Below, piece by piece: positions 7,925-32,100 of a stretch of 64,000 nucleotides of DNA; the stretch's first letter is position 1, and every line of letters begins with the position of its first letter. The notes beneath the pieces are model-generated. The model did no database searches, was not told the DNA's origin, and worked only from the letters and a program-made list of their open reading frames with translations. The stretch comes from Kiritimatiellia bacterium. GTDB lineage: Bacteria; Verrucomicrobiota; Kiritimatiellia; RFP12; UBA1067. Location of the stretch: the NCBI GenBank assembly GCA_045598585.1, contig JAZLMG010000023.1:6051-70050 (forward strand), read 5' to 3'. A program made the position numbers and the translations under genes.

Positions 7925-7948
7925 GTTGCCTGTTCCCTTTTCTACCAC

Positions 7949-14175: not shown

Positions 14176-14177
14176 TC

Positions 14178-15215: not shown

Positions 15216-15894
15216 GCGAGTACTCGTTACCGGTTCTTCTCGCGGCATCGGTAAAGCGATCTCGGAGCGCCTCAAAGCGGAGGGCTTCGAGGTCGTCACT
15301 CATGCCGTAAAATCCCCGTCGGCCGATCTTCACTTCGATATCGCGAATCGTGAAGAGACGAGGCGGGTTCTCGAAGAAGAGGTCGAGAAAAACGGCCTCT
15401 TCTTCGGAGTGGTCTTGAACGCGGGCGTGAACGCCGACAACGCCTTTCCCGCGATGGAAGATGAAGAGTGGGATAAAGTCGTCGACACCGACCTCGGCGG
15501 ATTCTACAATGTTCTAAAGCCGCTCGTGATGCCGATGATTTCAAATCGCATCAAAGGGCGCATCGTCGCGATCTCCTCCGTCTCGGGCGTTATCGGGAAT
15601 CGCGGTCAGGTAAATTATTCCGCCGCGAAAGCGGGCGTCCAAGGAGCCGTAAAAGCGCTCGCGGTTGAGCTCGCGCGTCGCGGCATAACGGTTAATGCCG
15701 TCGCTCCCGGTGTAATCGAGACCGACATGATCGACTCGATTATTCCCGAAGCGGTCGATGAAGTGAAGAAGGCGATTCCGATGCGCCGTTTCGGAAAAGC
15801 CGAAGAAGTCGCCGCGACCGTCGCGTTCCTCATGAGCGAAGGGGCCGCGTACATCACGCGCCAAGTGATCTCCGTTAACGGCGGCATGTTCTAA
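15202..15894 (+). CDS. short-chain dehydrogenase/reductase (FabG-like 3-oxoacyl reductase)
   Basis: 230 aa. Contains [14 protein letters not shown], and the catalytic S…YSAAKAG pattern. It overlaps the upstream gene by 14 nt. Confidence 0.85.
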
Positions 15895-15920
15895 GATTTT
15901 CGAAAGGAAGTATCCTAACA

Positions 15921-16946
15921 ATGAAAGCTATCGCAAAGGTCGCCCCTCAGAAGGGCGTCGAACTCGTCGAGAAGCCGATTCCTACCGTCGGCATCAACGA
16001 CGTCCTCATCAAAATCAAGAAGACCGCTATCTGCGGCACCGACGTCCATATCTATGATTGGAACAGCTGGGCTCAGGAAACGATCAAGCCCCCGATGACG
16101 ATCGGTCACGAATATGTCGGTACCGTCGTCGAAGTCGGCTCGAACGTCACCTCCGTTAAGGTCGGTGATCGTGTCTCGGGCGAAGGCCACATCGTTTGCG
16201 GCCACTGCCGCAACTGCCGCGCCGGTCAGCGTCACCTCTGCCCGAACACGAAGGGTGTCGGCGTTAATCGTGACGGCGCTTTCGCTGAATATCTTTGCAT
16301 TCCCGAATCGAACGTTTGGAAGTGCGATCCTTCGATCCCCGACGATCTCTACGCGATCTTCGATCCCTTCGGTAACGCGACGCACACGGCGCTCTCGTTC
16401 AATATGGTCGGCGAAGACGTCCTCATCACGGGCGCGGGTCCGATCGGTTGTATGGCTGCCGGCATTTCGAAGTACGTCGGCGCGCGTAACGTCGTCGTCG
16501 TCGATATCAACGATTATCGTCTCGGCCTCGCGAAGACCCTCGGCGCGACGCGCACGGTCAACTCGAAGAACGAGAAGCTCGAAGACGTCATGAAGGAACT
16601 CGGCATGGTCGAGGGCTTTGACGTCGGTCTCGAAATGTCGGGCGCGGCGCCTTGCCTCAATCAGATGATCGAGACGATGAACACGGGTGGCCGCATCGCG
16701 CTTCTCGGCATTCAGGGCGCCGAAACGAAGGTCAATTGGAACCACATCGTTTGGAAGGGTCTCAAGATCAAGGGTATTTACGGCCGCGAGATGTTCGAGA
16801 CTTGGTACAAGATGGGCGCGATGATCCAGGGTGGCCTCGACATCTCGAAAATCATCACTCACCGCTACCACTACACCGACTTCGAAAAGGGCTTCCAGGA
16901 CATGATTTCGGGTCGCAGCGGAAAGGTTATTCTCGATTGGGAATGA
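15921..16946 (+). CDS. tdh: L-threonine 3-dehydrogenase
   Basis: 341 aa. …[46 protein letters not shown]… and the structural-zinc cysteines ([21 protein letters not shown]) closely follow the Tdh pattern. Confidence 0.9.
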
Positions 16947-16968
16947 TAAACGCATAAAAATCGCGTTT

Positions 16969-17009
16969 CGCCCGTTGGTTTTTTCACTTGCCAACGGGCG
17001 CTTTTTTTT
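16969..17009 (+). terminator. rho-independent terminator after tdh
   Basis: Perfect 10-bp stem CGCCCGTTGG (16969-16978) / CCAACGGGCG (16991-17000), followed by C and T8 (17002-17009). Confidence 0.9.
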
Positions 17010-17017
17010 GGTATAAT
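17009..17017 (+). promoter_or_regulatory. extended -10 box TGGTATAAT positioned for a leaderless transcript of the 863-aa gene
   Basis: TATAAT at 17012-17017. The ATG at 17023 begins 6 nt after the -10 (a second ATG is at 17026). There is no Shine-Dalgarno sequence. Confidence 0.45.
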
Positions 17018-17022
17018 GTGCA

Positions 17023-19614
17023 ATGATGAGAAAGGCACTTTCATTCCTAGGGTGCTTGTTGTTAAGCATAGGTTCGGTAGCCGCCGAGCCTAGCAAATGG
17101 CTTTCTTTCAACGATTATTGGTTCGTTGAGAAAGGTGCTTCGACAAGTACAACCATCGACGGCGAACAGGTCGTAGGGCGCACGCTAACCGCGGGCGATA
17201 CGATAGCGTATTGCACGTTTAAACCGGCGCAAACGCAAGAAGTCGAATCGGATGAAGAGGATGAGGAAGGTTTTCCTCTTTTGACCGATGCGCTCGTTTT
17301 CAACTCGACCGATTTGCTCGACCCTATTCCTGACGGTAGCGGCTACTTCGTCAGGCTTGAGGCGAAGTTCGCCCCGCGCACGACACCGAAAGTGTCCGCT
17401 AGCAGAGACTTCCCTTATCGCACGCTCCTTTATGTTAAGGAGGGCGGTGAGGAAGGTCCGAACCATCTCGCGTTCTTGGAGCGCGAAGATGGTGCGGTGG
17501 CCGCGAAAGAGGTAGTAACCGATATCGAAGCTACCGCTGATACACTCCTCAATATTACTGTCCAGATACTCAAAGATAAAACTTTCCGCGTTTACGTCGG
17601 AGAAAATGAAGTTACGGTTGGCGGTACGACTTATACCTACCTATCGCTTCAAAATGGCGAAGGCAATGGTGAAGGCAGCTACTATTATGCCGAATATTTA
17701 CATTCGTTTGCCTTTACCGGAAGCGTGGAATTTGACAGTATCGAGTTCACGACCGTCAATCCGTTTACTAAGACGGTAACTTCGATACCGTTTAAGTTCG
17801 AATACGATTCCGCCGCGCTTTCCGAGGTAGCCGGTGTCGAGGATACGCTCGATCTCTCCGTAACTAAAACTTATACGGTAACTTTTAAGCGCGATACGGA
17901 TCAATACGATTTCGAGGAGCCTACGCTTACCGGCAATAGTGCGAAGATTGACGAGACTACGGATGATTCGATTACTTTCACCGTTGCCGACACGTTGACC
18001 GACGATAACAAGCTTATTTTGACGCTTCCCTCGAAGGCCTACTTCTTTACCTTCGGTAACGAGAAGTACGGTACTTTCGCTGAGGTTATCGCGGCCGCAT
18101 CGAAAAGCGGGAATCCGATTCAGCTCACTCACGACATCAATCTCGACGGTCCTGTCACGCCAGGCCCTCAGGCGGAAATTACCGATAATCAAGATGTCGT
18201 CATTGACCTTAACGGTAAGACGATTGTCGGTCTTAATTATCGCAAAGATGCCAATGACGCGGCGGTTGTGAACCGCGGCAAATTGAAGATCGTCGACTCC
18301 GATCCGGAGAAGCGGGGTAAGATCGTCGCTAACGGTTATGCGCTTTCCGTGTCGCCCACTTCCGACACGCTCGCGCTCGGAAACTATAATAACGAGACGA
18401 TCATCAAGGCCGGCACATTCGTCGGCATCGTCACCAACGTCGCGGGCCGCATTCAGATCGACGGCGGTAGGTTCTTGAAGGTTTACGGTGCAGATACCGC
18501 TGCCGACTTTTATCTTCGTCGTCAGGCGGGCGTTTACATTGGTGCACGTTTCGATAACGCAATATTCACGACTGAAGAAGTAAATGGTTTCTCGCGAGAC
18601 TTTTGGACCGGTAATGAGAATACTGACTTAATCGAATTCCGCGTCGAAATTCCCTCGTATGCCACGCTTTCTCAGAAGCTTTATACGAAGACCGCTTATG
18701 ATGATGGCTCGCGTCCCGAGGTCACTGCGGCGGGCTACAAGGTCGACGAAGTCAATTGGCTCGCGCCCGACGAATATGGTATTGTCCGCGGCGAACTTAC
18801 CGCCGAGAATTATACTGTTTCTTACGATACCGGAGACAAGGCCGAGGTCTTGTCGTCCGCCCCGACTACTTACACGGTCGACGCTGAGCCCATGGAACTC
18901 CCGACGCTTACCAACGAACTTTGGGAGTTTGTCGGGTGGTATGTTAACGGCAAGGAGATCAAGACGCTCGGCGAATTCGCGACCTTCGATGGAACCGGCG
19001 TACTTCCCGACGATTTGATTTTCGACAACCTCACGCTCGTTGCGAAGTGGAAGCCGATCGAGAAGTCTTGGACGAATGCGATGAAGGGGTCGCGCTATAT
19101 GGCGATGTCCGAGGCGAACGGTTTTTATACCGAATCCACCAAGTGGCAATTCACGATCCCCTCCAATAACGGCTTCGAGTCGGGAGACTCGATTAAACTT
19201 AAGTCGATCACGCTTTCGACGGTTAATGCCTCGCCCAATAATCTCGCTCGTATGGCGCCGACGCTTCGCCTTGCAATCGGTGGCGCGACATACGATGCGA
19301 CTGCCAAGCTCGAGAAGAACGATTCTACCGAGTTCGATTACTTTGAAACGAACTTCGGCTTCCGTCCGAAAGTCGTTTACTCGTTTGATGCCCCTGTGAC
19401 GCTTACCATCGGCGCGCCGTATACGTTCACGCTTGTGAACGCCGAGGGCGCTCACCATCCCGTCCTTCTTCGCTTGGTTAAGAAGACGAGCGATACCGAA
19501 TTTCAGCTTATCGGCACGATCGGCAATAGTGTCCCGTCGCCCGATTATCAATCTTACGTTCCCATGTACGAAATCGTCGGTGAAGCTACCGATGTAATTG
19601 AAGGAGCCGAATAA
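17023..19614 (+). CDS. secreted 863-aa protein with beta-helix-like segments and one Listeria-Bacteroides (Flg_new) repeat
   Basis: Signal peptide MMRKALSFLGCLLLSIGSVAA. Contains an …IDLNGKTIVGLNY…AVVNRGKLKIVD… motif. Flg_new-like unit: YTVSYDTGDKAEVLSSAPTTYTVDAEPMELPTLTNELWEFVGWYVNGKEI. Its stop overlaps the pseudopilin ATG by 1 nt (TAATG). Confidence 0.85.
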   Translation: MMRKALSFLGCLLLSIGSVAAEPSKWLSFNDYWFVEKGASTSTTIDGEQVVGRTLTAGDTIAYCTFKPAQTQEVESDEEDEEGFPLLTDALVFNSTDLLDPIPDGSGYFVRLEAKFAPRTTPKVSASRDFPYRTLLYVKEGGEEGPNHLAFLEREDGAVAAKEVVTDIEATADTLLNITVQILKDKTFRVYVGENEVTVGGTTYTYLSLQNGEGNGEGSYYYAEYLHSFAFTGSVEFDSIEFTTVNPFTKTVTSIPFKFEYDSAALSEVAGVEDTLDLSVTKTYTVTFKRDTDQYDFEEPTLTGNSAKIDETTDDSITFTVADTLTDDNKLILTLPSKAYFFTFGNEKYGTFAEVIAAASKSGNPIQLTHDINLDGPVTPGPQAEITDNQDVVIDLNGKTIVGLNYRKDANDAAVVNRGKLKIVDSDPEKRGKIVANGYALSVSPTSDTLALGNYNNETIIKAGTFVGIVTNVAGRIQIDGGRFLKVYGADTAADFYLRRQAGVYIGARFDNAIFTTEEVNGFSRDFWTGNENTDLIEFRVEIPSYATLSQKLYTKTAYDDGSRPEVTAAGYKVDEVNWLAPDEYGIVRGELTAENYTVSYDTGDKAEVLSSAPTTYTVDAEPMELPTLTNELWEFVGWYVNGKEIKTLGEFATFDGTGVLPDDLIFDNLTLVAKWKPIEKSWTNAMKGSRYMAMSEANGFYTESTKWQFTIPSNNGFESGDSIKLKSITLSTVNASPNNLARMAPTLRLAIGGATYDATAKLEKNDSTEFDYFETNFGFRPKVVYSFDAPVTLTIGAPYTFTLVNAEGAHHPVLLRLVKKTSDTEFQLIGTIGNSVPSPDYQSYVPMYEIVGEATDVIEGAE

Positions 19615-20456
19615 TGAAGAAGGCCTTTACGCTTATTGAACTTTTGATCGTCATCGGCATTCTCGGTGTTTTGATGGGTGTTATTCTTTCTCAGTTCGGC
19701 GGTGCGACCGAAAGCTCGCGCGCGGCGGTTTGTCAGTCTCACATGCGTAACCTCGCTCAGGCCTGCCAGACCTACGCGATGTCCTGCAATTATTATCCGC
19801 GCGCCGGAACCCAGGAATTCGTTGACTATGATTCCAATACCGACCAGATGGTCTACGGTATTAAAGTCGGTTGGATTGCCCGTCTAGGCGACAAGGACAA
19901 TATCGGCCGCGTCGATTCCGGGCGTAAGAGCGGCAACTATAAGAGCGGTCTTACCATGAACGAAGATCAGATTGTCGAGTCGATCACGAACGGATGTCTT
20001 TACGCGACGCTCGGTAAGGATCGCGCTTCCTATACCTGTCCTCATGAAAAGGGCGCCGGTTGGTCGTACGCGATGAACTGCGACTTCGGTTTCACTCCTC
20101 CCGGAGAGAGCGATGCGACCGGTTCGAGGAACCCGGGCGCTATTTACTATAGCTCGATCAGCCGCGCCGACCGCAAGCTTCTCTTCGCCGAAATCGATCG
20201 TACGGATACTTCCGACGCGGCGAACGATCCGGTTCTTGATTACGATAACGAGCACATCGGCTTCAATCACAAGAACGGTAAGCTCACCGTCGCGCATGTC
20301 GTTTTCGCAGATTGTCACACCGCTCGCCTTGCACGTCCGAAGAACGCTTCGGAGAGCAAGCTTAGGGAATTGACCGAATGGCTCTGCCAGGGCTATGACG
20401 TCACTTACGTGGGCGGTCAATACGAAAAGGTGGAAGACTCCGCCACGGAAGATTGA
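19614..20456 (+). CDS. pseudopilin / type IV pilin-like protein with a prepilin-type N-terminal methylation domain
   Basis: N-terminus MKKAFTLIELLIVIGILGVLMGVILSQ is the class III signal (FTLIELL with Glu5), with Ala instead of Gly at -1. The C-terminal NHKNGKLTVAHVVFADCH resembles the H-X9-DG-type tail of PVC DUF1559-like pseudopilins. Confidence 0.85.
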   Translation: MKKAFTLIELLIVIGILGVLMGVILSQFGGATESSRAAVCQSHMRNLAQACQTYAMSCNYYPRAGTQEFVDYDSNTDQMVYGIKVGWIARLGDKDNIGRVDSGRKSGNYKSGLTMNEDQIVESITNGCLYATLGKDRASYTCPHEKGAGWSYAMNCDFGFTPPGESDATGSRNPGAIYYSSISRADRKLLFAEIDRTDTSDAANDPVLDYDNEHIGFNHKNGKLTVAHVVFADCHTARLARPKNASESKLRELTEWLCQGYDVTYVGGQYEKVEDSATED

Positions 20457-20458
20457 TA

Positions 20459-23400
20459 ATGAAGAATCTACTTAACAAACTCTTGATAATGGCTTTAGCG
20501 GGGGGGCTTGGCCTCCTAGCGCGAGCTGCTGCGCCGACGATGTTCGTCGACTCGCTTGAGCTCAAGGTCGGCTCGATAACCGACGAAACCAAGTCGTTCG
20601 AGGGCCTTCCCGTTCTCATTAAGGTCTATGAGTCCGATGAGAAATTCCCGGGCTTTATGATCTCCCGTACCGGTGGCCTTGACGGTAACGGCTCTGACAT
20701 TCGCTTCAGTCAAAATAACGTGATCCTTCCGCACGAAATGGTCGCCGCCGAGGAGGACGAAAACGGTAAGTATGTAAGTTTCTCGTTCTGGGTTCGCGTC
20801 CCGACCGTGGCCAAGGATTCGACGATTACGATGCACTGGGGCGTGAAGGATGGCCAGCGTCCCCCGGCGAACCGCTCCTCGCTCGTTTGGAGCGACTACA
20901 TTGCGGTTTGGCATGATGCGCCTTACTCGGCAAAAACCGTGAAAGATGTCTCCGAAAATAATCGCGATGCTTCCCGTGACGAGGATGGAAATCTCTATGT
21001 TAGCGGGCTCGGTTTAACCGGTCCCTTTACAATCAGCGCTCGATATATCGGTGATGGAATCGATGTTAATGCATATCCCGGCGGTGAAAGCAATATTGAG
21101 AAGAATCTGATCTTCGGTAACTTTCTCCGCAATCAATATGGTTGGGGTGCCGATGTATATTTCGTGAATCAGTATTGTGGCCGTGTAACATCCGGTGGCA
21201 AAAACGGATATGCGGCAAAAGCGAATATGAATCCTAACACGGTTACCGCGTGGCACAATGTGGCTTTTGTCGGTAACGATGATTTTACTTACTCTTTCTA
21301 TGTTGACAACACAAACATCGGACATAATGGTGACACTCAGAACTTTACTCACACCTCTTCCACCGTTCCGCTTCGTTTGGCTCGCGCCGGTTATTCCGCG
21401 AAGGAGATTCGACTCTCGGAAAAGGCGCTTTCGCTTGATCGCTTGAAAGAGGAGGTGAAGGCGGAAGGCGAGAATTATGTGACGCTCGCTGATGGTGCTC
21501 AGCATGTCATTGCCCAAGGCGAGAACTATTGGGTTCGCGAGCCCTCGCTTTCGCCGCTCGCCTTCTCCGATCCTTCGAAGGTTATACTTGATGTCGGACA
21601 GGCGAAGTTCGGTGGCCCTAGCCCGACGAGCTTCTCTGTCCAAGATGCCGCGGGCAAGAAGAAATTCTCCGGCGGCTTTGCTGATTTGGCTGATCCGGAA
21701 AAGAACCCTGCCGGTTTTGGTGCCTATCGTGTCGTGGTCACGACCTCTGATATCGACAATGAAGGCAAGCCGATTAAGCAGTTTCAAAAGATTATCTACT
21801 TCGCTTACGTTTCCGAAGTGATGAGTCAGGATCTTCGCGATAACCAAACGATGCTCTTCAATGACATTGAAGGTAGCGACAAGATCAATGATCAATCCTT
21901 CATCCTGGGCTCCAACTGGATTCATCCGACCGTTGTCGAGACGAATGATGTTGAGTATACGCGCGTCGCCGATGAGCACCTTACTCATAAGCGCGGTTGG
22001 CGCCTTCGTTATGGTACGATCGGCAACAGCCGAGAAAGCGACGCTGTTGGAAGTGATCTCGATCCGCTCAAGAACTACCTTCCCTTCGGTAAAGATGTCG
22101 GTGCTTTGAGCTACAAGAACCCCGGCGCGGCGGCTGAAGACTTGATCGATGCGGGCGCGGCGATTCTCTACAATTACTCCGACAAGACCGACCCTGCGGC
22201 GGTTTACTCTCCCGTCTATACTCAAGGTATCGGTGAAGTTTACTTCGATGCGGTCAATATGGACTGCGACTATCGCAATCGTCTTGAGCTCCAGTACATG
22301 ACGCTGTCGGATGTGACGAACGCTCTAGGGCGTGCCGATGCGACGATGGACGAAATCACGAATGATCTTTGGGCCAACGCGAAGCACACCTTTGGCGCGC
22401 TCGAGATTCTCCAAATTAAAGAGGGCGTGAAGGCTAATGTTTGGACCAATCGTTCTTACGTACCCTTGATGATGACGAAGAATAGTGACAAGGCGAACAC
22501 ATCGAGCTTCTATCGCGTCCGCGCGAAGCTCAATGTCGCCGAGCCCGTAATCTTCCGTATTGCTCGTACCGACTCGAGCTGGGGCGCGGGCGGTCTTACC
22601 GGCCCCGGTAAGATTCTTGTCGATAACATCCTCGTCAGCGATCCGACGACGGTCGTGAAGCTCCACCGCCTCGAGGACACTTGGGATCCCGAGCGTGATT
22701 TCGGCAAGTACCTCCACGGCGACCGCGGCACTTTGACGAAGCGCTTCCCGAAAGTCGGCGATACGAATGTTCGCGCTAAAGTCGCCGTTACTTACGAGGG
22801 CTTCGGTAGTAACGAGCTCGCGACTCGTGCGAAGAATGTCGCGGCGCTTATCTTCAAGTATCGTCGTCGCTACTTGAACGCGAATCTCGGTGAGAAGGGC
22901 GAGTGGAAGTCGGTTCGCATGGAGTGCGCGGATCCCGAGTCGGGCTCGATCTTTATGACGCCCGAGTCGGAGCCGCTCGATCTCGGCGAAGAGGGAGAAA
23001 GCGCGTTTGATGTCGAATATGCGTTTGAGTATACCCCGAATCCGACGAGCTACGATTACTTCGATTATTTCGGTCTTGCCGATTGCTCGTTTGCCGCCCG
23101 TGCTATGGATAGTGCGACAACCTTGCCTTATCGCGGCGTGGATGAAGGCATAACTCACACGCCTACGCTTGGCGATGACTTCTTCTTCCGTCTTCGCGAA
23201 GGCGCTTCCGACTATGAGCAGATGGAACTTCTTTGGCAGTTTGCTGATGAGAAGGGCGCGACCTCGAGTATCGTCACGAACAATCTTCACCTTATCGACG
23301 ATCATCTCTGGACCGGAGCGATTACGGTCACGAACGCGAACGCTCGCTTCGGTTTCAAGATGCGCGGTGTTAATAAGAATGAGCTTGGTGAGAACGGCTA

Positions 23401-26400
23401 TTGGATTTTGGATACAGACGATAAGGATGTCGAATCTTCGCCTTATTCCACGATTGCGATGGCGCTCCAAGGTGAGCAAGACGAATTGGCCGGCTATAAG
23501 TGGCTCTCGGCTGATGTTGTTAAGAACACTCGTCAGTTCGTCGTTCGCTTCAATGACAATACGGGCGCTTTCTCGATTTGCCGCGGTGACTATCAGGATT
23601 TCAACCACTGGACTGACGCGGCTGCGAAGTCGGAGGATAAGTTCGTTGCTCATGCGGGTCAAGTCGGTGATGATGGTGTGACGATTCCGATTGCGAACTC
23701 GATTCTTCAGCAGCGTTACCCGTCCGATCCCTCCAAGAATGTTTTTGAGGATTGGCAGGAGAATGTTTCCAGCGATGAGCTCTGGCAGGAAAAGTTCACC
23801 ACCACATGGAATGAAAACGAGCAGGCTCGCACCGGCACGACGCTTCTTGGTACGACTACCGGTGAGCGCACCTTCAACAACGGCTGGGTTGGGCATAACT
23901 TCATGTACGTGAACGAGTCGCTTAACAATCTCTTCTCGTCGAGCTATAATTCTCGCGCGGCGCTTTTGGAAGGTAAGGGCCGTGGCTCGTTTGAATGCGA
24001 TGAGTCTTCTCGTTATCCCGATGGTATCGGCGAAATCAACTTCGATGCGCGTCTCGGTCAGCAGCATACATATGACCGAATCTCGACTTATCAACCTAAT
24101 GGTGACGACTTTACCGATAAGGACTATCTTGTCTCGACTCGCGTCGTGATGTCGTCTAGGGCGACGAGCGCGACCGATCTCGGTTTCGATGGTCAGGGCA
24201 CGGTTTCGATCTTCGCTTATCATAACGCTAGCGGATCCTATGAATTTCGCATGAAGCGCCTTTCGCGCAATGAGTTGGAGCTCGGCCTTTATCGTTGGTA
24301 TCAGGAAAAGACCGGTGCGCCTTTGAAGGTGAAGGAGATCTACCGCGCCGTTCGTAATGCCACTAGCTATGATAGCGACACCAACGCGGGGCGTGTTCCC
24401 GGAACGACGCTTTGCTCTACGAAGCTTGCCGACGGCGAAGGTGAGAACACGACCGCGTATGTTGCCTTCTTGAGCGTTAAGTCGATTTATGAAGGAGAGG
24501 GTGCGAATCGCACCTTTGTCGGCAACCAGCTCTATGCCGGTTTCACGAATAACAATGGTGCCGGCGGCGCCTTCAGCAACCGTCCTTCGGTTGCGACCGA
24601 TATTGCCGGTCGTGAAATGAAGTGGCACTCTTTCTACGCTCAGGATCGCGGCTTTACCGATAGTAACAATCGTCAGGTCAAGCCGCTTCGTAACGGTACT
24701 TTCGGCTTCCTTTCGACCGACTGTCCCGCGCGCTTCATGCGTCCTCAGGTTCATAACGCGCTCGATCGCATCTCCGGTAGGAATCTCGCGTATGCCGACA
24801 CGATTGCGCTTCCGCCGGTCCGCGTTGACGATGGTAATACTTACATAAAGAGTCAGAAGAACGATAGTGACGCTAAAAACGATTTCTGGGATCACTGGTA
24901 CATTGCACCCTCTGCCGATATCGGTAAGTGGAATGTTTTGAATGAGGATTATTATGGTATCGTGACGCCCGAAGTCACTCAGAAGATCGTTGTCTCGACT
25001 CGCCCGAAGAACAGCTCCGAATGGACCGAGTTCAAGAAAGTCGATGTAGCTTCCTTTAACTATTCTTCGATTACCATCCCCGCTCACACGACAACTCCGA
25101 CTTGCGTCCGTCTCTCGACGTATGATGATGGCGATGATTCGCCGCGTTGTGATGTGATTCTTGACAACCTCGAAATGACTCAGTGGCACGCCACGACTAC
25201 GGCGAATCTTTCTTCGCTTGATAACGACAAGTTCGTGTTTACCGGCGTCTGGACCGAAAGCGTGAAGGGTTCGAAGAAGGCGGAGTTCTGGCCGCTTCGC
25301 GTGGCGACAGATGAGCTGCAGACGATTCGCTCGCCGTTCCTTGAGCACGGCATCGGCGCGATCTCCATCTCTTACGATCTTGAGACGCTTGATGAGCGCG
25401 CCGTGCTTGACATCGAATACGTTTCCGCCGAAGATTTGGCCGATTACAATGTAGTCAATTATACGAACAACAGCCGCTATCAAGACGAGTGGCAACAATA
25501 TAAGCGCTTTAACTACGATGATCTCGTTGCTGCCGGCGGTCGTATAACCGAGTATATCGGTTTGCGCGGCAAGCCGTCGCTCATTCGTCTTCGCGTTCCT
25601 CAGTCCGTAATTGAGGCCGCCCACACAGATACCGACAATGGTAAATACGGTCGTATCGACATTAAGTCGATTGCGGTATGGGACGAGCCGAATGTCGACG
25701 AGCGCTCTTGGACGGCGTGGAACGTTCGCGTCGCTAACGCGAATACTGCCGCGAAGGAATATGTTTCTTACGACAAGCTCCTTAACATCGATAGCTGGCT
25801 TGATCGTAGCGAAACCTCAGGTATGTCGATGGAACTTAATAACGGCATTCTCGATATCGCTGAAAACGATCCCGACTTCTATCGTGCGCACCTCCCGTAC
25901 ATTCAGTCTCCCGCGCTCACGACTCCCGAAGACAAGAACTCCGGCATCACCGTTGGTGAGATTAATTTCCGTGCCCGTAAGAGCGGCTTTGATACGGAAG
26001 ACGCCTGTGTCGGCATTTATGCGGTTAAAGACTTGAAGGGCGACGATAAGGATATGGTGCTTGTCGGTACTACCAATCTTACCTCCACCGCTTGGCAGAA
26101 TATCACGATCAAGAATAAAGAGTCCGGCGTGATGGCGATTCGTCTCGTCATCATGGATAAGGACGCGGAAGGCAATCCTGTTCATTCCGACCGCGCACTC
26201 TTCGATGAACTCTCGGTCACCGAGCGTGTCGACCCGAATGTCGTCGTTACCTTCGCGCGTCCGTTCCGTAGCGATCTTAGCTTCACCGCCCCCGTCGCTA
26301 CGATTACCCTTCCTGAAGAGCAGCCGCTCTGTCGAGAAGAGTTCGGTATCCAATGCGAACTCGCGTTGAAGCAGCTCGAGCCGGTGATTATTCCCGAGAC

Positions 26401-28498
26401 GATTGAAGTTTGGTGTGATTACTATATTGAGAGCTTCTATAACTTGAGCGATAGTAATTGGGGCTACTCTTTATGGAAGGGTGATGATGATTCGAATAAG
26501 CGCGGCACTATCAAGCTTTCGCCTGCGGTGAACGCCGCTGATCCTTCTCGCCTTATCTATCGTATGACTCGCCACACCGATGGCAGCGCCGATTACATTC
26601 CGCCGGTTGAGACGCCGAACACGGTAGTTCAGTATAACTTCCGCATTACCTTCAAGACGACTCAGGATGAAGATATTCATGAGGCCGCGCCGTTCAATCC
26701 TAATGATGTGAACCAGTGGACGATTCCCGAGTGGTACTATCCTGTCGATCTTAATGGCGACTATGCCGGCGCTTCCGCTTATACGATTATCGATAATGTC
26801 GCTCCTAAGCGTGCTTGGATTAACGAAGTTAACGCGTGGGATGCTCGTGACCTTAACCAAGAGGGTGCCATCGAGACTACTACCAACTCCTGGGTTGAAA
26901 TCGCCATTCCCTCCGGCGTAGACATGACCGATTGGCGTCTTGAGGCGGTTTCGACGGTTAATGACAAGAAGAAGATCATGACCTATGCGTTGATGACCTT
27001 CGGAGATGGCTGCGCCTCCTCGCTCTCGTCGAACGATCCTTTCGCGTTCTACGTCGTCGCGAACAAGAAGTCTGCCGTTGCTCATGATGCGGTAATGGAC
27101 ATTCCTTCTTATTCTTCGCTTGGCTATTCCGATCAAATTTTCGATGGTTCCGCTTTGAGCTACTATATGCCTTATGCACTTCGCCTTGTGCGTCCTACCG
27201 GCATTGTCGATCACGAGATACTTGTCGGTGCCGGCAATGAAGTCTATGAGCTTGATTCCATTTACGACGATTTGGTAGATGGCGAGACCGGTCATAATAA
27301 GACTGTGATTACCGCGATGGATAATGCTGCGGACTTTGACGCTCAAGGCAATTCCGTTACCGTTAGCATGAAGAATATCGCGATGTCCACCGATCTGGCG
27401 GCCTCTAAGTCGTGGGATAATACGATGACTGCGACGCCCGGTAAGATTAACATCGATCAGACGATTGCCGATGACTACGTGATCTATCCTAATGACGATA
27501 CTCTTCGCGTCCTTTGCACTGTCAGCGGTGAAGGTGGTATCGAGCAAGATATCGGTAATGGTCGTACAATCGACTCGCAGCTTACGACTGTTGCGAAGGG
27601 CAAGGGTGAAGCTGTTACGATTTGGTATTACCTCGCTCCTTGGTATGAGATCGGGACTATCTTCGTGAATGGTGTTGAGGTTGAGAACCTTCAGCTCGGT
27701 CGTGATGAAAATACCGGGGCTTACTCCTTTAGCTATGTGCCCGAGATGAATACGACGATTGAGGCCGTTTCGCGCACTACGAAGGTGCTTACTGATCTTA
27801 TCAATGACGAAGACTATCCGAACGGCAATCCTTACGAGAGCGCGATTCTTGATTGGATGAGGACGGAATATCCGACTTTGGATCCCGAAAAGCTTGCGAA
27901 TAACCTTACCGAGCTTGTGGATGCGAACGGCAATGTTTATGGTAATCTTACGCTTACAGAGATGTACTGGATTGGCGCTGATCCCTCGACCCCGGAATGG
28001 AAGCTTGTGTTCTGGAACTCCGCTCCTACGCCGGATGATAATATTGTTGACGAATTCGGCGATAGCGTTATCAGAATGACGCTTCACATCGAGTATACGA
28101 ATGGCGCCATCTCCAAGAAGTTGACGAATCTCGCTTCGAGGACCTATGGTATTAACAGTGCTAACTGGAAGAGTTCGGACGTTGAGGTTAAGTTCGAAGA
28201 CTGGACTTCTAATGGCCCGACGCTTCAGGTCATTGGCAGTCTCTGGGCCACGAGTCCGCATGGCGTTTCGCTTGCCGATCGATACGTCCCGATCAAGTGT
28301 TACATCCTCGATGCCAACTCTTTTGATGATAACTGCGAATGTGAGGTCTACTTGCCCGATCCCTTTGGTCCGCTTTCGATTACCGGTGCGTACCTCGATT
28401 GGAATAAGTATTCTCGCGATACCTTCGTCGGCTGGAAACTCCAGCTCGGCGAGCGCTCTGAAAAGCTCCCCGGTTACTCACTCGACTACCTTCGCTAA
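20459..28498 (+). CDS. giant secreted protein (~2,679 aa) with N-terminal DUF2341-like and LamG/ConA-like lectin domains
   Basis: Signal peptide MKNLLNKLLIMALAGGLGLLARAAA. DUF2341-like segment at ~20600-20850 (LPVLIKV…GSDIRFSQNNVILPHEMV…YVSFSFWVRVP…ITMHWG). LamG-like segment at ~20990-21450. The rest is uncharacterised beta-rich sequence. The ATG at 20459 is 2 nt after the pseudopilin stop. The track ORF starts at TTG 20453. Confidence 0.9.
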   Translation: MKNLLNKLLIMALAGGLGLLARAAAPTMFVDSLELKVGSITDETKSFEGLPVLIKVYESDEKFPGFMISRTGGLDGNGSDIRFSQNNVILPHEMVAAEEDENGKYVSFSFWVRVPTVAKDSTITMHWGVKDGQRPPANRSSLVWSDYIAVWHDAPYSAKTVKDVSENNRDASRDEDGNLYVSGLGLTGPFTISARYIGDGIDVNAYPGGESNIEKNLIFGNFLRNQYGWGADVYFVNQYCGRVTSGGKNGYAAKANMNPNTVTAWHNVAFVGNDDFTYSFYVDNTNIGHNGDTQNFTHTSSTVPLRLARAGYSAKEIRLSEKALSLDRLKEEVKAEGENYVTLADGAQHVIAQGENYWVREPSLSPLAFSDPSKVILDVGQAKFGGPSPTSFSVQDAAGKKKFSGGFADLADPEKNPAGFGAYRVVVTTSDIDNEGKPIKQFQKIIYFAYVSEVMSQDLRDNQTMLFNDIEGSDKINDQSFILGSNWIHPTVVETNDVEYTRVADEHLTHKRGWRLRYGTIGNSRESDAVGSDLDPLKNYLPFGKDVGALSYKNPGAAAEDLIDAGAAILYNYSDKTDPAAVYSPVYTQGIGEVYFDAVNMDCDYRNRLELQYMTLSDVTNALGRADATMDEITNDLWANAKHTFGALEILQIKEGVKANVWTNRSYVPLMMTKNSDKANTSSFYRVRAKLNVAEPVIFRIARTDSSWGAGGLTGPGKILVDNILVSDPTTVVKLHRLEDTWDPERDFGKYLHGDRGTLTKRFPKVGDTNVRAKVAVTYEGFGSNELATRAKNVAALIFKYRRRYLNANLGEKGEWKSVRMECADPESGSIFMTPESEPLDLGEEGESAFDVEYAFEYTPNPTSYDYFDYFGLADCSFAARAMDSATTLPYRGVDEGITHTPTLGDDFFFRLREGASDYEQMELLWQFADEKGATSSIVTNNLHLIDDHLWTGAITVTNANARFGFKMRGVNKNELGENGYWILDTDDKDVESSPYSTIAMALQGEQDELAGYKWLSADVVKNTRQFVVRFNDNTGAFSICRGDYQDFNHWTDAAAKSEDKFVAHAGQVGDDGVTIPIANSILQQRYPSDPSKNVFEDWQENVSSDELWQEKFTTTWNENEQARTGTTLLGTTTGERTFNNGWVGHNFMYVNESLNNLFSSSYNSRAALLEGKGRGSFECDESSRYPDGIGEINFDARLGQQHTYDRISTYQPNGDDFTDKDYLVSTRVVMSSRATSATDLGFDGQGTVSIFAYHNASGSYEFRMKRLSRNELELGLYRWYQEKTGAPLKVKEIYRAVRNATSYDSDTNAGRVPGTTLCSTKLADGEGENTTAYVAFLSVKSIYEGEGANRTFVGNQLYAGFTNNNGAGGAFSNRPSVATDIAGREMKWHSFYAQDRGFTDSNNRQVKPLRNGTFGFLSTDCPARFMRPQVHNALDRISGRNLAYADTIALPPVRVDDGNTYIKSQKNDSDAKNDFWDHWYIAPSADIGKWNVLNEDYYGIVTPEVTQKIVVSTRPKNSSEWTEFKKVDVASFNYSSITIPAHTTTPTCVRLSTYDDGDDSPRCDVILDNLEMTQWHATTTANLSSLDNDKFVFTGVWTESVKGSKKAEFWPLRVATDELQTIRSPFLEHGIGAISISYDLETLDERAVLDIEYVSAEDLADYNVVNYTNNSRYQDEWQQYKRFNYDDLVAAGGRITEYIGLRGKPSLIRLRVPQSVIEAAHTDTDNGKYGRIDIKSIAVWDEPNVDERSWTAWNVRVANANTAAKEYVSYDKLLNIDSWLDRSETSGMSMELNNGILDIAENDPDFYRAHLPYIQSPALTTPEDKNSGITVGEINFRARKSGFDTEDACVGIYAVKDLKGDDKDMVLVGTTNLTSTAWQNITIKNKESGVMAIRLVIMDKDAEGNPVHSDRALFDELSVTERVDPNVVVTFARPFRSDLSFTAPVATITLPEEQPLCREEFGIQCELALKQLEPVIIPETIEVWCDYYIESFYNLSDSNWGYSLWKGDDDSNKRGTIKLSPAVNAADPSRLIYRMTRHTDGSADYIPPVETPNTVVQYNFRITFKTTQDEDIHEAAPFNPNDVNQWTIPEWYYPVDLNGDYAGASAYTIIDNVAPKRAWINEVNAWDARDLNQEGAIETTTNSWVEIAIPSGVDMTDWRLEAVSTVNDKKKIMTYALMTFGDGCASSLSSNDPFAFYVVANKKSAVAHDAVMDIPSYSSLGYSDQIFDGSALSYYMPYALRLVRPTGIVDHEILVGAGNEVYELDSIYDDLVDGETGHNKTVITAMDNAADFDAQGNSVTVSMKNIAMSTDLAASKSWDNTMTATPGKINIDQTIADDYVIYPNDDTLRVLCTVSGEGGIEQDIGNGRTIDSQLTTVAKGKGEAVTIWYYLAPWYEIGTIFVNGVEVENLQLGRDENTGAYSFSYVPEMNTTIEAVSRTTKVLTDLINDEDYPNGNPYESAILDWMRTEYPTLDPEKLANNLTELVDANGNVYGNLTLTEMYWIGADPSTPEWKLVFWNSAPTPDDNIVDEFGDSVIRMTLHIEYTNGAISKKLTNLASRTYGINSANWKSSDVEVKFEDWTSNGPTLQVIGSLWATSPHGVSLADRYVPIKCYILDANSFDDNCECEVYLPDPFGPLSITGAYLDWNKYSRDTFVGWKLQLGERSEKLPGYSLDYLR

Positions 28499-28583: not shown

Positions 28584-28592
28584 TGGTATAAT
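28584..28592 (+). promoter_or_regulatory. extended -10 box TGGTATAAT upstream of the lipoprotein / 6,654-aa gene pair
   Basis: Located in the 215-bp gap after the 2,679-aa gene, ~120 nt upstream of the ATG at 28714. Confidence 0.4.
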
Positions 28593-28713: not shown

Positions 28714-29100
28714 ATGCGCATAAGACCCTTGATTTTATTGGCTGTAATTGCGCTTGTTGTCGGTTGCGAAAAAGCTCCCGAAGCGCCGAAAGAAGTGCCC
28801 GAAGTGTACACGATGAAAGACAATTCGTACATGGAAGATCCGGCGTTTCAATTAAAACTCCGAGAACTGCGCGAGGCGCGCGGGGGGGTCGAAAGCCGTC
28901 GCGAGAAGATTTTGTCCCGACTCGCCTCTTTGGACGAAAGTGAGAGTGCGAAGCGCGCGGAGCTCCAAAAAATGCTTGATGAAGCAAATACCGAACTCGA
29001 AAATATCCGTCAGCGGGTAATCGTGGTATCGCGTGATCGTATCAACCAAGCCGTCGCCGACACCAAGCTTGTCGAAGAAGGTAAGGCCAAGGCCAAGTAA
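28714..29100 (+). CDS. small coiled-coil lipoprotein
   Basis: MRIRPLILLAVIALVVGC|EK (lipobox), followed by a helical, charged region. GGAGG at 28702-28706. The track ORF starts 7 codons earlier at TTG 28693. Confidence 0.75.
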   Translation: MRIRPLILLAVIALVVGCEKAPEAPKEVPEVYTMKDNSYMEDPAFQLKLRELREARGGVESRREKILSRLASLDESESAKRAELQKMLDEANTELENIRQRVIVVSRDRINQAVADTKLVEEGKAKAK

Positions 29101-29115: not shown

Positions 29116-32100
29116 ATGAAAGCAGGTAACAATATGATGAAGAAATTCCTCTCGCTCATTGCCGCGTTCACTCTCTCGACGCTTGCGGCTTCCGCTGCCG
29201 ACGTCTGGAAGATGTATACGATTCAGGATCGCTACAATCCTACAACGCCGAAGAAGTATACCGCGGCGACGCCCGTTGTCCCCGGTAATACGGTTACTTT
29301 CGCGGTTGAAATCCTTAACAAGGGTTCGGCTTACAATACTACCAAGGATGATGGGGCTCTTCCCACTACCCTTGGAACACCTTGGGGCTTTGTTAATAGC
29401 GGAACCGGTTTCGATGCCGCTTATCCGACGATTTCCGTAAGTGTCGGCGGTCGCCGCGACGAGGCCTCGATTGTCGGCGTATATACCTCGGCTTCGGCGG
29501 GCTATGCTACGGCTCTCGTCTGCGAATATGTCGTCAAACCCGGCGATTTGGCTCGTCCGCTCAAGATTTGGAATAATGAATTCATCGTTACCCCCACCAT
29601 CGGCGGTACCACTATCGGTATCAAGAATAGCGATGGTACGATTTCGACCCCTCAGTGGGGTGATGGCTGGGTCGCGCCTGTAAAGACCGCTAGCCAGGGC
29701 GCAAAGATCGAAACTTCTGAGTCTTATAACTCGGAAGAACGTTTGAACAAGACGCTCGCCGGTTCCAATATCTATGTCGAAGGCGTTCGTTTTGCGACTT
29801 CCGCCCCTGAAAGTAACTCCGCGCCCGGGACTTGGCTCTCGGTTCGCGCCAACTCGACCGAGCTTTTCGGTGGCGAAGCGGCGATCGAAGTGACCGGTGT
29901 TTCGACCTCGAATGGTGCTTCTACTCTCTATATTTGGTCCGGTAATGAAGATGTTATCGATATCGTCGGCGATTCGAACGTCCTCAAGCTCGTTGAGATC
30001 GATCCGAATGCGGAAGTGATTTACAATCCTAGCGACAATCTCGCCGACAAGAAGACCGCCAATGTTTATCAGCTTGTCTTCGCTCAGGGTTCTTGCCGTT
30101 TCAAGCTTCACGCGAAGGATGGTACTTACGATGCCAATAATCGTAAGAGCGCGAAGATTTATGTTTCCACCATGCCCGGCATGGTTCTCAACAACGCGAC
30201 TACAATTATCAACGACTTCATTGAAGCGACGGTTGATGTCATCGCTCCTTCGAAGCCCTCGGTTTGGGTTCGCCTTGATGGCGCTTATGAGCGCGCCGTT
30301 GTTATCGGCTCCGCTTCCCAGCCCAAGATGACCTTGTCGCTCTCCGGGCGCAGCTTCAATGAAACCGTTAAGGTTGACCTCAAGGTCACCTACAATGGTA
30401 TCGAAGAAGATGCGACGACGCCCGAGTTCATCGTTCTCGGCACCGAGTCGGTTAAGGAAACGCGCAACAACATCCTTTCTTACGAGTTCGACCCCGGTGA
30501 GACCGAGAAGGAGATCCACTATTTCTTGAGAGGTGTCCCGGCGGGCGGCAGCTTCTTAATTACTCCTATTTGCAACAAGGTCGCGACGATCGACTGCCAC
30601 GAAGCGCACATGGTCGTGATGCCGAATCCTGCGATTACGAAGGTTGAGGCGAAGGGCTTCCAATCCGGCCGCGCCGGCAAGGTTACCGTTACGATCACCG
30701 ACTCCGAGCGTAACTTCACGCTTGCCGACGATTACAAGGTCGAGTGGTTCTTGAACACCGCTGATGACACTCCTGCTACGGTCAAGAGCGTTACATTCGC
30801 CGACGGTAAGTTCACGCTCACCGGTATTGAGTATAAGCTTCCGGGTAACTATACGAGCCGTGTCGCGGTTACGACTCCTGATGGTGTTACCGTTTCCACC
30901 GATGTCGAAGTTATCGTCAAGGAACTTACCGTCGCGAAGCTCGTTCGCGCGGATGGTACGGCGCTCAAAGAAGCTGTCGGCGAAGATGGTGCCGAGTATA
31001 AGATCGTTCTCGAGCCGAATCCCGGTCACGAAGGCGACCTCTATGCCTATATCGTGGCGACGGATGACGCGGGCGAAAAGCTTATCAAGACGACCGATCA
31101 GGCGCTTCCTTATGCGATGACTGACCGCGCCGGTCTTGACGTGACGAGCGGCGCGACCGAGCCGTTCATGATTAACTTTAATGATAACGGCGTGGTTTCG
31201 GTCACGGTTGTTCTCTCGACCTCGGCTTACTATGATGATACGACTGATGAGACCTATGGCCTCTCGACCGCTAAGCTCAACGTGAAGAACATCGCGGCGG
31301 TTGTCGGTAAGTTCCGTGTCCAGCCCCATGGCAAGACGACTTGGAGCTCCGCCTCGGCTAAGTCAGTTGCCGGTAAGGAATATGCCTACGAAGCTACCTA
31401 CACGGGAACGCTTAAGAGCGAAGAAGAATACAAGCTTCAGGCCTCGATTACCGATGTCACGAACGATCTCGGCTCCGATGTTATCGTCGAATGGCGCGTT
31501 CTTGATGCCGATGGTAACCAGACGGCTATTTTCTACACGAAGACGAAGCCCACGAGCGGTTGGGTCTCGTGTCCTGAGATTCCCGAGTTGACTTGGGAAG
31601 GCAAGCATTTCGTCGAAGTTCGCGCTCTCGATAAGGATCAGATCGCCGCGCTCGTCGTCGGCAATGAAGCCGTTGAAGCGCTTAACGACGATGCGAATTA
31701 TACCGACGGCTTGTTCAACGAGACCTTCGGCCCTGGCGATACGCCGCTCTTTGAAGACTTCGGTACCAATGTAGTCGCGACCCGCTTGGCTCTTACCGTT
31801 ACCAACAAGCCCGGTATGACGGTTGCGCTTGACCGCTTCGCGTATCCTTCCGAAGACGGCACATACCTCGGCTGGCTCGAAGGCGCCGAAGAGCACGAGG
31901 TCACGATTACGCTCGATCAGAATGTGACCGGTGTCAAGGAATCGAAGTTCGATGTTACAATTCTTACGATCGATGATAAGGTTCCTGCGATTACCGATTT
32001 GGCGATTTCCGGAAGCGCTGTCAATAACAAGACTACCGTCACGATTGCCGCGAACAAGAAGACCGCTTCTTTCAAGCTTGTTACGAAGGACGGCAACAAC

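Follow-up and report, generated by a model that had tools for sequence, protein, structure and literature searches.

Large secreted proteins and type IV filaments

In the MSHA structural operon (mshO-mshP-mshQ), minor pilin genes lead directly into the gene for MshQ, a large LamG-type protein that is secreted, has about 1,200 aa and is encoded inside a complete pilus operon. The PilY1/PilC tip adhesins are large non-pilin proteins whose function is linked to minor pilins of type IV filaments, and in the PVC group the genes of the Verru_Chthon cassette (TIGR02596-TIGR02600) join prepilin-type proteins with a large protein. Here we describe a 64-kb stretch of DNA from a gut Kiritimatiellia bacterium, referred to as the window, in which three co-directional ORFs encode proteins of 863, 280 and 2,679 aa (ORF1, the pseudopilin and giant 1). 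Only about the first 13% of giant 1 resembles the MSHA-type architecture, and the protein gives no match to the Neisseria_PilC/PilY1 beta-propeller and differs from PilY1/PilC in size and in its predicted fold of tandem beta-sandwiches. It matches no Verru_Chthon cassette model, and proteins C and D of that cassette show weak N-terminal matches to the pseudopilin, far under the cut-off. MshQ and PilY1 had been offered as loose precedents in the preliminary description of this DNA; giant 1 has no MshQ or PilY1/PilC model match at E <= 0.1.

Minor pseudopilins of type II secretion systems (T2SSs) are described as capping the endopilus that pushes exoproteins out (PMC6211770). The likeness to the T2SS tip complex GspK-I-J(-H) is that paralogues of the window pseudopilin come after a GspK-like gene in T2SS operons; the family differs in being an extra pseudopilin of ~280-360 aa beyond the canonical set, with a DUF1559-like 'FNH...FAD(G/C)H' globular domain. 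Giant genes beside T2SS-like loci are already known in Omnitrophota, where the loci that precede them include genes with class III signals (West-Roberts et al., bioRxiv 10.1101/2023.11.21.568195). In both cases, T2SS/T4P-like genes and small genes with class III signals are closely followed by genes for proteins of great size and little annotation that have attachment- and carbohydrate-related domains. However, the Omnitrophota proteins reach >30,000 aa, are rich in transmembrane regions, contain SecA-DEAD domains and come after a complete secretion locus of >10 genes (10.1101/2023.11.21.568195), whereas the window giants have 2,679 and 6,654 aa, plain Sec signals, no transmembrane or ATPase domains and a single pseudopilin; the two are likened by arrangement. 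The arrangement had been called undescribed, which has to be tempered by this precedent for giants after T2SS-like loci. Homologues of Amuc_1101, 1100, 1099 and 1098 of the Akkermansia pilus-like cluster (PMC4960237, PMC5332112) are found at 53033-60388 of the window. Literature searches on DUF1559, on Kiritimatiellia pilins or prepilins and on MshQ/DUF2341 found nothing relevant. Judged from sequence, what is new is a previously unannotated giant-protein family that is genomically tied to the Kiritimatiellia T2SS pseudopilin operon.

Organization of the locus

The trio is best read as the front part of a surface/secreted-protein island of ~32 kb in gut Kiritimatiellia, with the order ORF1, pseudopilin, giant 1, lipoprotein and giant 2. 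Its treatment as a unit in the preliminary description is right in that the three genes are tightly packed, but the unit is larger, since the lipoprotein and the second giant come next. The features of the window are as follows.

16969-17009, forward strand: intrinsic terminator with an 11-bp GC-rich stem, a 10-nt loop and C-T8, ending an L-threonine dehydrogenase-like gene
16988-17017, forward strand: sigma-70-type promoter, TTGCCA-18-TG-TATAAT, with an extended -10
17023-19614, forward strand: ORF1, 863 aa, with a Sec-type signal read from the sequence; start probably at 17026
19614-20456, forward strand: pseudopilin, 280 aa, with the class III signal MKKA/FTLIELL and E at +5
20459-28498 (ORF from 20453), forward strand: giant 1, 2,679 aa from its ATG, with a Sec signal read from the sequence
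20687-20842, forward strand: DUF2341-like segment of giant 1, aa 77-128, sub-threshold
20909-21463, forward strand: LamG/ConA-like variable head cassette of giant 1, aa 151-335
21866-28495, forward strand: conserved body of giant 1, aa ~470-2679, predicted tandem beta-sandwich/CBM-like
28714-29100, forward strand: lipoprotein between both giants, 128 aa, lipobox VVGC, with a coiled-coil look by eye
29116-49080, forward strand: giant 2, 6,654 aa, with a Sec signal, Laminin_G_3 and bacterial TSP3 repeats
53033-60388, forward strand: Akkermansia-type pilus-like envelope cluster, comprising PilM-like (Amuc_1101 family), Amuc_1100-like, Amuc_1099-family and secretin genes

The terminator hairpin (16969-17000) folds with -20.7 kcal/mol (z = -3.65), and its stem and T-run are identical in six genomes, two loop bases alone differing. 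The -35 element of the promoter sits inside the 3' arm of the terminator, and the promoter score of 11/12 is the best within the 13.5-kb region scanned. The -10 element ends 8 nt ahead of ATG 17026 and only 5 nt ahead of ATG 17023, which makes a leaderless or near-leaderless ORF1 mRNA plausible. Hence, the strong terminator and leaderless-type promoter seen earlier are supported by the hairpin fold and the promoter score, with a presumptive transcription start. The intergenic stretch that contains both elements is 96-100% conserved across the six genomes. The first ATG of ORF1 reads ACG in the distant loci L009 and L015, and therefore the true start is probably ATG 17026.

At the junction between ORF1 and the pseudopilin, GGAGccgaaTAATG, stop and start codons share a 1-nt overlap (TAATG, at 19614) next to an SD-like GGAG, and the pseudopilin and giant 1 are separated by a 2-nt gap (TGAtaATG, 20456/20459). 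These sequences agree with the packing of the three ORFs as originally reported, and loci L001-L003 and L009 keep it, with a 4-nt overlap followed by a gap of 2-8 nt. The accompanying claim that coupling implies stoichiometric co-production over-reads the evidence, as the overlap of the genes suggests co-translation only. Phage, toxin or diversity-generating (DGR) genes are not seen among the annotated ORFs of the window, and an explanation of the island by such elements was set aside on this ground.

The pseudopilin

The N-terminus of the pseudopilin reads MKKA followed by FTLIELLIVIGILGVL, and the protein matches N_methyl (PF07963; E = 7.9e-6, 25.7 bits, cut-off 21.2) and TIGR02532 (25.1 bits, cut-off 16.3), both above cut-off, which bears out the class III (prepilin) signal noticed in the middle gene. 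By its N-terminal methylation motif it belongs to the type IV pilin/pseudopilin superfamily, and the class III motif is unique to it within the 64-kb window. The residue at -1 of the prepilin peptidase site is Ala, not Gly, in the window pseudopilin and its orthologues, and Gly in many paralogues. The pseudopilin profile matches pilins in the PDB and GspG across the N-terminal helix. Canonical GspG or GspH membership is not supported by TIGR01710 (35.8 bits, cut-off 88.85) or TIGR01708 (26.8 bits, cut-off 80), whose matches are confined to residues 4-64 and 4-48, respectively, that is, to the N-terminal helix.

The globular domain aligns at 35-41% identity over 96-100% of its length to >100 proteins and contains the conserved motifs 'IGFNH-x(9-10)-V-FAD(G/C)H' and 'LTxWLC'. 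The DUF1559/SBP_bac_10 model (PF07596) reaches 18.6 bits (cut-off 23.3) over aa 33-89 only, precomputed PF07596 matches are present on several paralogues, and the NCBIfam H-X9-DG-type model is absent among the matches of the pseudopilin at E <= 0.1. With the operon-terminal pseudopilin of locus L006, phmmer gives E = 3.8e-54. Over the full length of its globular domain, the window pseudopilin thus qualifies as a member of the Kiritimatiellia T2SS-operon-terminal pseudopilin family, as defined in this analysis.

ORF1, the giants and the genes downstream

ORF1 belongs to a small family of secreted proteins of ~840-1,000 aa that are encoded upstream of these giants. About 14 near-full-length relatives are found in an exhaustive search, with an iterated HMM 22 of 42 loci show a member encoded ahead of the giant, and in L011 and L013 the ORF1-like gene overlaps the giant directly. 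Residues 597-642 give a sub-threshold Listeria-Bacteroides repeat match, and the ORF1 profile has no usable match to PDB sequences. The 916-aa upstream protein of L004 was considered as a further member and rejected, since phmmer does not detect it and the resemblance is weak and at the level of motifs. A relationship to the ~1,070-aa protein that precedes T2SS-terminal pseudopilins was likewise discarded: that protein is GspK-like, no homology to ORF1 was found and the giant is unrelated to it as well. By BLASTP, no domains are common to ORF1, giant 1 and giant 2.

Homologues of giant 1 align over its full length at 23-93% identity, and with a broader alignment the family has at least 113 relatives among GTDB species genomes. 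An initial view of the family as tiny was a sensitivity artefact of word-indexed homology searches, which gave 12-14 proteins, and of first genome and metagenome scans, which gave none. The whole protein has zero matches to Pfam and NCBIfam at E <= 0.1 and its body, cut into eight pieces, gives nothing at this threshold; about 2,300 aa are without Pfam coverage, and the giant 1 profile finds nothing usable among PDB sequences. A Lamin-tail domain considered at aa ~2112-2165 has no Pfam support. No enzymatic domain is found in giant 1 with Pfam or NCBIfam, nor the repeat or anchor domains of the repetitive giant-adhesin type (RTX/Bap/Ig-repeat), and neither giant 1 nor giant 2 has internal repeats detectable as BLASTP self-matches at E <= 1e-3.

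When the first 350 aa are scanned alone, DUF2341 (PF10102) is matched at aa 77-128 (E = 0.083, 13.8 bits, cut-off 23.4). The match recurs at the corresponding position in the four other relatives scanned (E = 0.0016-0.056, 14-19 bits) and in distant homologues, with a strong precomputed match in L011. Laminin_G_3 (PF13385) is matched at aa 228-310 (E = 1.6e-4, 22.3 bits, cut-off 27.6). The DUF2341-like and LamG-like opening ascribed to the giant on first inspection consequently stands in so far as it recurs in relatives and fits the predicted fold, although in the window giant itself it is sub-threshold. The body (aa ~470-2679) is common to all family members, including 'short' giants without the head; a split N-terminus was considered for the latter and dismissed, as no upstream ORF carries the missing part.

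Giant 1 is predicted to be all-beta. The AF2 model of aa 1-1140 has a pLDDT of 62.8 (63-65 for the AF2 models overall), and Foldseek relates it to the botulinum-toxin receptor-binding region in the PDB (E ~1e-6, aligned query residues unreported), which presumably contains a ConA-like jelly roll. Predicted folds of giant 1 also match CBM22, SGBP-B, MAM and a gingipain adhesin domain. These fold matches are generic and the AF2 confidence is moderate, which counts against the reading preferred below.

Of 58 loci, 28 have a small ORF similar to the lipoprotein gene after the giant, and 43 have a second giant ORF there. The domains recognised in giant 2 are one LamG and TSP3 repeats only. The Amuc-type cluster lies 24 kb downstream of the pseudopilin, an adjacency to giants unseen in other loci, and among its four matches the Amuc_1099 family alone passes the NCBIfam cut-off, the other three being below. 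Its 1,164-aa secretin of the Amuc_1098 family is the sole secretin in the window and a candidate for the outer-membrane conduit.

Conservation of the neighbourhood and the link to T2SS operons

Close relatives retain the trio (shown directly for L001-L003 and taken from contigs of matching length for six more), as do the distant L009/L015, with identities of 30% for ORF1, 49% for the pseudopilin and 29% for the giant. We surveyed 79 further loci from Kiritimatiellia gut MAGs, covering 1.55 Mb around the giants. All 12 prepilin-motif genes in this survey precede the giant in the same orientation, eight of them directly adjacent, and none is found elsewhere, at odds with the earlier proviso that the pseudopilin might be a randomly placed paralogue. 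Among eligible species-level loci, 7 of 47 have this pseudopilin <=200 nt upstream of the giant, and three more have it farther upstream on the same strand. About 80% of the family loci are without a pseudopilin beside the giant, and thus it is not needed in cis, which counts against the reading preferred below. Conservation of the trio as neighbours had been proposed as a check; it is seen in L001-L003 and L009/L015 and not in these ~80%. In gene order, the conserved core is the ORF1-like protein and the giant, whose genes often overlap.

The gene neighbourhoods indicate that the pseudopilin family normally closes the Kiritimatiellia T2SS pseudopilin operon, right after a GspK-like protein of ~1,000 aa. 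The nearest paralogues of the window pseudopilin (37-39% identity) end GspF / GspG-like / minor-pseudopilin / GspK-like operons in three of three sampled cases, and in L058 and L045 the T2SS pseudopilin operon continues straight into the ORF1-like and giant genes (the order in L058 is s182-s156-s161-GspK-like-pseudopilin-ORF1-like-giant-giant2, and that in L045 is similar). In the lineage of the window and in several others the pseudopilin is found directly in front of the giant, and giant-adjacent and operon-terminal pseudopilins are intermixed in a neighbour-joining (NJ) tree. Four loci (L035, L046, L079 and L092) combine an adjacent pseudopilin with a giant that lacks the whole DUF2341/LamG head. 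An interface between the pseudopilin and the first ~350 aa of the giant, as had been envisaged, is therefore unlikely.

Variation between genomes

The flanks of the island are 88-94% identical in DNA between genomes, whereas the proteins encoded inside it are 29-88% identical, and the drop begins about 65-200 nt into ORF1. Across these genomes the identities are 45-55% for ORF1, 43-67% for the giant and ~50% for the lipoprotein; the pseudopilin, at 57-88%, is well above its neighbours. The window giant and its relative P0001 are 99% identical over aa 1-150, 35% over aa 151-335 and 99% over aa 336-2679. Alleles that are nearly identical elsewhere have exchanged the LamG-like head (aa 151-335) as a cassette. 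The pseudopilin occurs in two types. A Mantel test finds no association between pseudopilin type and the LamG-like cassette (r = 0.05, p = 0.35), while the correlation with the remainder of the giant is moderate (r ~0.55). The giants P0009 and P0011 are 86% identical and their pseudopilins only 54%. On chromosomes that are otherwise nearly identical, this locus is one of the regions that vary most, and its lectin-like head is exchangeable. This pattern suggests diversifying pressure on the island and speaks for the reading preferred below, while the pseudopilin tree is partly discordant with that of the giant, which counts against it.

A proposed T2SS-linked module and its alternatives

We favour a T2SS-linked module for giant adhesin-like proteins in which the pseudopilin is an accessory component, a reading that we consider about evenly poised between right and wrong. 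In its favour are the conserved neighbourhood, the adjacency to T2SS operons and the Omnitrophota precedent. ORF1 and the giants would pass the inner membrane via Sec and fold in the periplasm. The pseudopilin would be cleaved by prepilin peptidase and join the T2SS endopilus, probably at or near its GspK-like tip, where it may couple the machine to very large cargoes that exit through a secretin. Outside the cell, the giants would be glycan- or surface-binding adhesin-like proteins, with specificity residing in the exchangeable LamG-like head; an extracellular binding role is supported by the Sec signals, the all-beta predicted folds and the failure to find an enzymatic domain. The window contains no GspD/E/F core genes and its sole secretin is of the Amuc_1098 pilus type, which counts against a T2SS cargo, as does the size of the giants, roughly 300-700 kDa as estimated from their lengths of 2,679 and 6,654 aa. 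To our knowledge, T2SS cargoes of this size would far exceed any characterised substrate. In a more specific and rather doubtful form, the accessory pseudopilin would be a dedicated cargo adaptor or tip anchor by which a T2SS-type endopilus exports or displays non-repetitive giants of this size. These would constitute a novel class of surface proteins dependent on type IV filaments in gut Kiritimatiellia, with a ligand specificity re-tuned by recombinational swap of the ~185-aa LamG-like head.

Alternatively, instead of being released, the giant may be attached through the pseudopilin to a type IV filament, at its tip or along its side, as a filament-borne adhesin in the manner of PilY1 or MshQ, with an Amuc_1098-1101-like secretin complex as conduit. 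The order of a minor pilin gene and then a large LamG/DUF2341-type protein gene resembles that of the mshO-mshP-mshQ and pilY1 operons, the Akkermansia-type cluster lies downstream in the same window, and a variable head cassette would suit a distal binding domain. We nevertheless regard tip display as improbable, given the lack of Neisseria_PilC/PilY1 and MshQ model matches, the headless giants that keep adjacent pseudopilins, the absence of an Amuc-like cluster near giants in other loci and the majority of giants that have no pseudopilin in cis. If the linkage is merely historical, an ORF1/giant module once stood beside a T2SS pseudopilin operon and a rearrangement stranded its last pseudopilin, which would still serve the general T2SS without a giant-specific role. 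L058 and L045 could represent the ancestral layout, the pseudopilins are not monophyletic by context, about 80% of loci do without one, and missing co-variation with the cassette beside r ~0.55 with the rest of the giant is what linkage alone would give. However, the 1-4-nt overlaps and 2-8-nt gaps are kept while the flanking proteins fall to 29-30% identity, and the 12 prepilin-motif genes in the flanks of the 79 loci are all upstream and co-directional. Moreover, in the clade of the window the pseudopilin gene comes after ORF1 and ahead of the giant, not before ORF1, so that at least one extra rearrangement must have been fixed and kept. Even then, adjacency of T2SS and giant genes would in itself suggest a functional link, and we consider a purely historical origin unlikely.

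The sharp contrast between flanks of 88-94% DNA identity and island proteins of 29-67% identity, the swap of the head cassette and the two pseudopilin types would also suit a generic antigenic-variation island, in which five surface antigens or phage receptors are replaced together and co-location reflects shared selection, not machinery. We consider this very unlikely, as the pseudopilin (57-88%) is far better conserved than its neighbours and neither the link to the T2SS operon nor the exclusive upstream, co-directional position would be accounted for.

Significance for gut Kiritimatiellia

Kiritimatiellia are common yet barely studied in horse, ruminant and human gut communities. If the pseudopilin does adapt a secretion pilus to the giants, this would broaden both the range of sizes and the logic known for T2SS and type IV filament substrates, and the giants would become candidate determinants of attachment to host glycans or particles, or phage targets, in gut Kiritimatiellia.

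Organization of the locus

The unit around giant 1 exceeds a trio. The three ORFs of the preliminary description were all confirmed at their coordinates, and the features of the window are as follows.

6830-11581, minus strand: dnaN, dnaA and mnmG
17023-19614: ORF1, 863 aa
19614-20456: pseudopilin, 280 aa
20459 (ATG) to 28498: giant 1, 2,679 aa
28714-29100: lipoprotein, 128 aa, coiled-coil in appearance by eye
29116-49080: giant 2, 6,654 aa, non-repetitive, with LamG and TSP3 domains
53033-60388: Akkermansia-type pilus-like cluster

ORF1 and the pseudopilin gene overlap by 1 nt (GGAGccgaaTAATG), and a 2-nt gap separates the latter from giant 1 (TGAtaATG). The terminator and promoter described ahead of ORF1 are present, namely the terminator of the L-threonine dehydrogenase-like gene tdh (11-bp stem then C-T8; -20.7 kcal/mol, z = -3.65) and a promoter (TTGCCA-18-TGgTATAAT, 11/12) whose -35 element lies within the terminator 3' arm and whose -10 element ends 5 nt before the ATG. 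Since this first ATG is ACG in two of the six genomes compared, the aligned sequences suggest that the true start is probably 17026. Across six genomes, conservation of the tdh-ORF1 intergenic block (16937-17075), in which the terminator overlaps the promoter, reaches 96-100%. It is better conserved than the coding flanks, even where ORF1 is only 30% identical, and may serve for regulation, as a fixed anchor for recombination, or for both.

The lipoprotein and giant 2 recur as a pair 3' of the first giant in many loci. An extended -10-like TGgTATAAT at 28584-28592, ahead of the lipoprotein gene, may start a separate transcript. Next after giant 2 come ackA, pta and a KpsF-like gene. The cluster at 53033-60388 encodes homologues of Amuc_1101, 1100, 1099 and 1098 of the Akkermansia muciniphila outer-membrane pilus-like cluster, including a 1,164-aa secretin. 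The dnaN, dnaA and mnmG genes and an AT-rich stretch (8001-10000, GC 0.39) probably mark the chromosomal replication origin region.

Divergence among close relatives

The close relatives of the window are Kiritimatiellia, and the trio is conserved among them: the order adh_short, tdh, ORF1, pseudopilin, giant, lipoprotein and giant 2 is kept, with the same tight junctions, in three loci (L001-L003). Flanking DNA is 93-94% identical to L001 and L003, and Tdh is 98.5-99% identical to its counterparts in close relatives. Protein identities to L002, L001 and L003, respectively, are 55, 47 and 45% for ORF1, 88, 78 and 57% for the pseudopilin, 67, 45 and 43% for giant 1, and 48, 50 and 48% for the lipoprotein. 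For L015, a horse-faeces MAG, the flank is 88% identical, the giant 29% and the pseudopilin 49%; ORF1 of this type is 30% identical, a value taken from L009, a locus essentially identical to L015. DNA identity to related genomes, 88-94% in the flanks, is no longer detectable from about 65-200 nt inside ORF1 (about 200 nt for the close relatives), and on the far side of the island pta is at least 90% identical on the contig of L001. Compared with the flank at 13885-17220, the stretch 17220-49080 is a surface-protein island that is hypervariable among genomes.

Giant 1 and P0001, an otherwise nearly identical allele, share 99, 35 and 99% identity over aa 1-150, 151-335 and 336-2679, and the P0001 cassette (aa 151-335) is 75-77% identical to cassettes of giants whose identity elsewhere is 45-54%. 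This LamG-like head (20909-21463) recombines as a cassette and occurs in at least three types that cut across the phylogeny of the remaining protein.

Architecture of the large proteins

The DUF2341-like and LamG-like opening ascribed to giant 1 holds in part. The whole protein gave no match to domain families, and its first 350 aa alone gave sub-threshold matches to Laminin_G_3 (aa 228-310, E = 1.6e-4) and DUF2341 (aa 77-128), the latter at a site also matched in relatives. Beyond this head there is no Pfam coverage, BLAST found no internal repeats and no enzyme was detected. Both AF2 models of giant 1 are all-beta: that of aa 1-1140 (pLDDT 62.8) resembles the botulinum-toxin receptor-binding region in the PDB, which contains a ConA-like jelly roll, and that of aa 1534-2679 (pLDDT 65) resembles tandem CBM22, SGBP-B, MAM, reelin and a gingipain adhesin domain. 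Giant 1 is predicted from these models to have a generic binding-module architecture. It aligns with its relatives over the full length, and a 'short' sub-family wholly lacks aa 1 to ~470.

The ORF1 family is small, with about 14 near-full-length relatives in 1.84 billion representatives, and no solved structural relative was found. In four distant loci (L011, L013, L016 and L017) the giants carry an N-terminal extension of ~250-300 aa that is matched by the ORF1-family HMM in its N-terminal domain (positions about 5-326, E = 1e-18 to 1e-21); in some lineages, then, a module is common to ORF1 and the giants.

The pseudopilin and its linkage to giants

The class III signal described for the middle gene is supported by scores above the N_methyl and TIGR02532 thresholds, and its prepilin motif is the sole one in the 64-kb window. 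The orthologue group is clear (45-90% identity), and a wider Kiritimatiellia family at 32-41% identity conserves IGFNH...FAD(G/C)H and LTxWLC motifs. All three paralogues sampled are the final gene of a T2SS-type operon, in the order GspF, GspG-like, minor pseudopilins, small ORFs, a ~1,000-aa GspK-like protein and pseudopilin. In such operons at six loci (L005-L008, L045 and L058) the GspK-like protein is unusually large (~980-1,070 aa) and the GspG-like protein has 370-396 aa.

A broader alignment yielded 113 giant relatives among GTDB species genomes, from which 80 loci, mostly gut or rumen MAGs titled Kiritimatiellia, Verrucomicrobia or Lentisphaerae, were retrieved and surveyed with our own HMMs. 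Several giant-bearing contigs among L015-L094 lie in bins with names of Firmicutes or other taxa (Lachnospira, Faecalibacterium, Gemmiger, Christensenella, Azospirillum) and may be mis-binned. In 47 loci the 5' end of the giant is complete and the upstream flank is at least 1.3 kb long; seven of these have this pseudopilin at most 200 nt upstream of the giant, as does L035, whose slightly shorter flank places it outside this count; in three further loci it lies farther upstream on the same strand. No pseudopilin is found near the giant in about 80% of surveyed loci. All prepilin-motif ORFs found in 1.55 Mb (12/12) are upstream of a giant and co-directional, with none elsewhere. The alternative that the pseudopilin is a paralogue placed at random is refuted.

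Of 42 loci, 22 have an ORF1-family gene ahead of the giant; downstream of it, 43 of 58 loci have a second giant and 28 of 58 a small lipoprotein-like ORF. In L058 the tail of a T2SS operon leads directly into an ORF1-like gene, giant and giant 2, and L045 is similar. L011 and L013 show a direct overlap of the ORF1-like gene with the giant, and in L004 an unrelated gene separates the ORF1-position gene from the giant. At L004 8560-10000, in the place of the pseudopilin, lies a gene with a C-terminal Zn-ribbon (Pfam Zn_ribbon_Top1), otherwise helical by eye. Inverted arrays of GGACAGAGGACAGACGG-like repeats border it on either side, and it resembles a mobile or selfish insertion. Giant-adjacent and operon-terminal pseudopilins are interspersed in an NJ tree. 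Pseudopilin identity correlates only moderately with that of the giant N-terminus and body (r ~0.55) and does not correlate with that of the head cassette (r = 0.05); headless giants, too, have adjoining pseudopilins. These results, the layouts of L004, L011 and L013 and the ~80% of loci lacking a nearby pseudopilin temper the tie between pseudopilin and giant.

Relation to known systems and interpretation

MSHA MshO/P/Q and PilY1 are looser analogues of the pseudopilin-giant arrangement, and the MshQ and PilY1 models have no match in giant 1. The closest described arrangement is that of Omnitrophota, whose giant genes lie downstream of T2SS-like loci that include class III-signal genes (bioRxiv 10.1101/2023.11.21.568195), so that the arrangement has a partial precedent. 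Our literature search turned up no paper on this Kiritimatiellia family. Novel here are a family of uncharacterised giants, its recurrent coupling to one pseudopilin family, the extreme inter-strain divergence of the island and a swappable giant head.

Stoichiometric co-production, as previously proposed, does not follow from gene overlap. The most economical reading is a functional tie to T2SS-type machinery. The data point to the pseudopilin being an accessory component of the T2SS that is at times encoded with giants; it is not obligately partnered with the lectin head of the giant. As for the fate of the giant, release and filament display would both be compatible with the sequence data.
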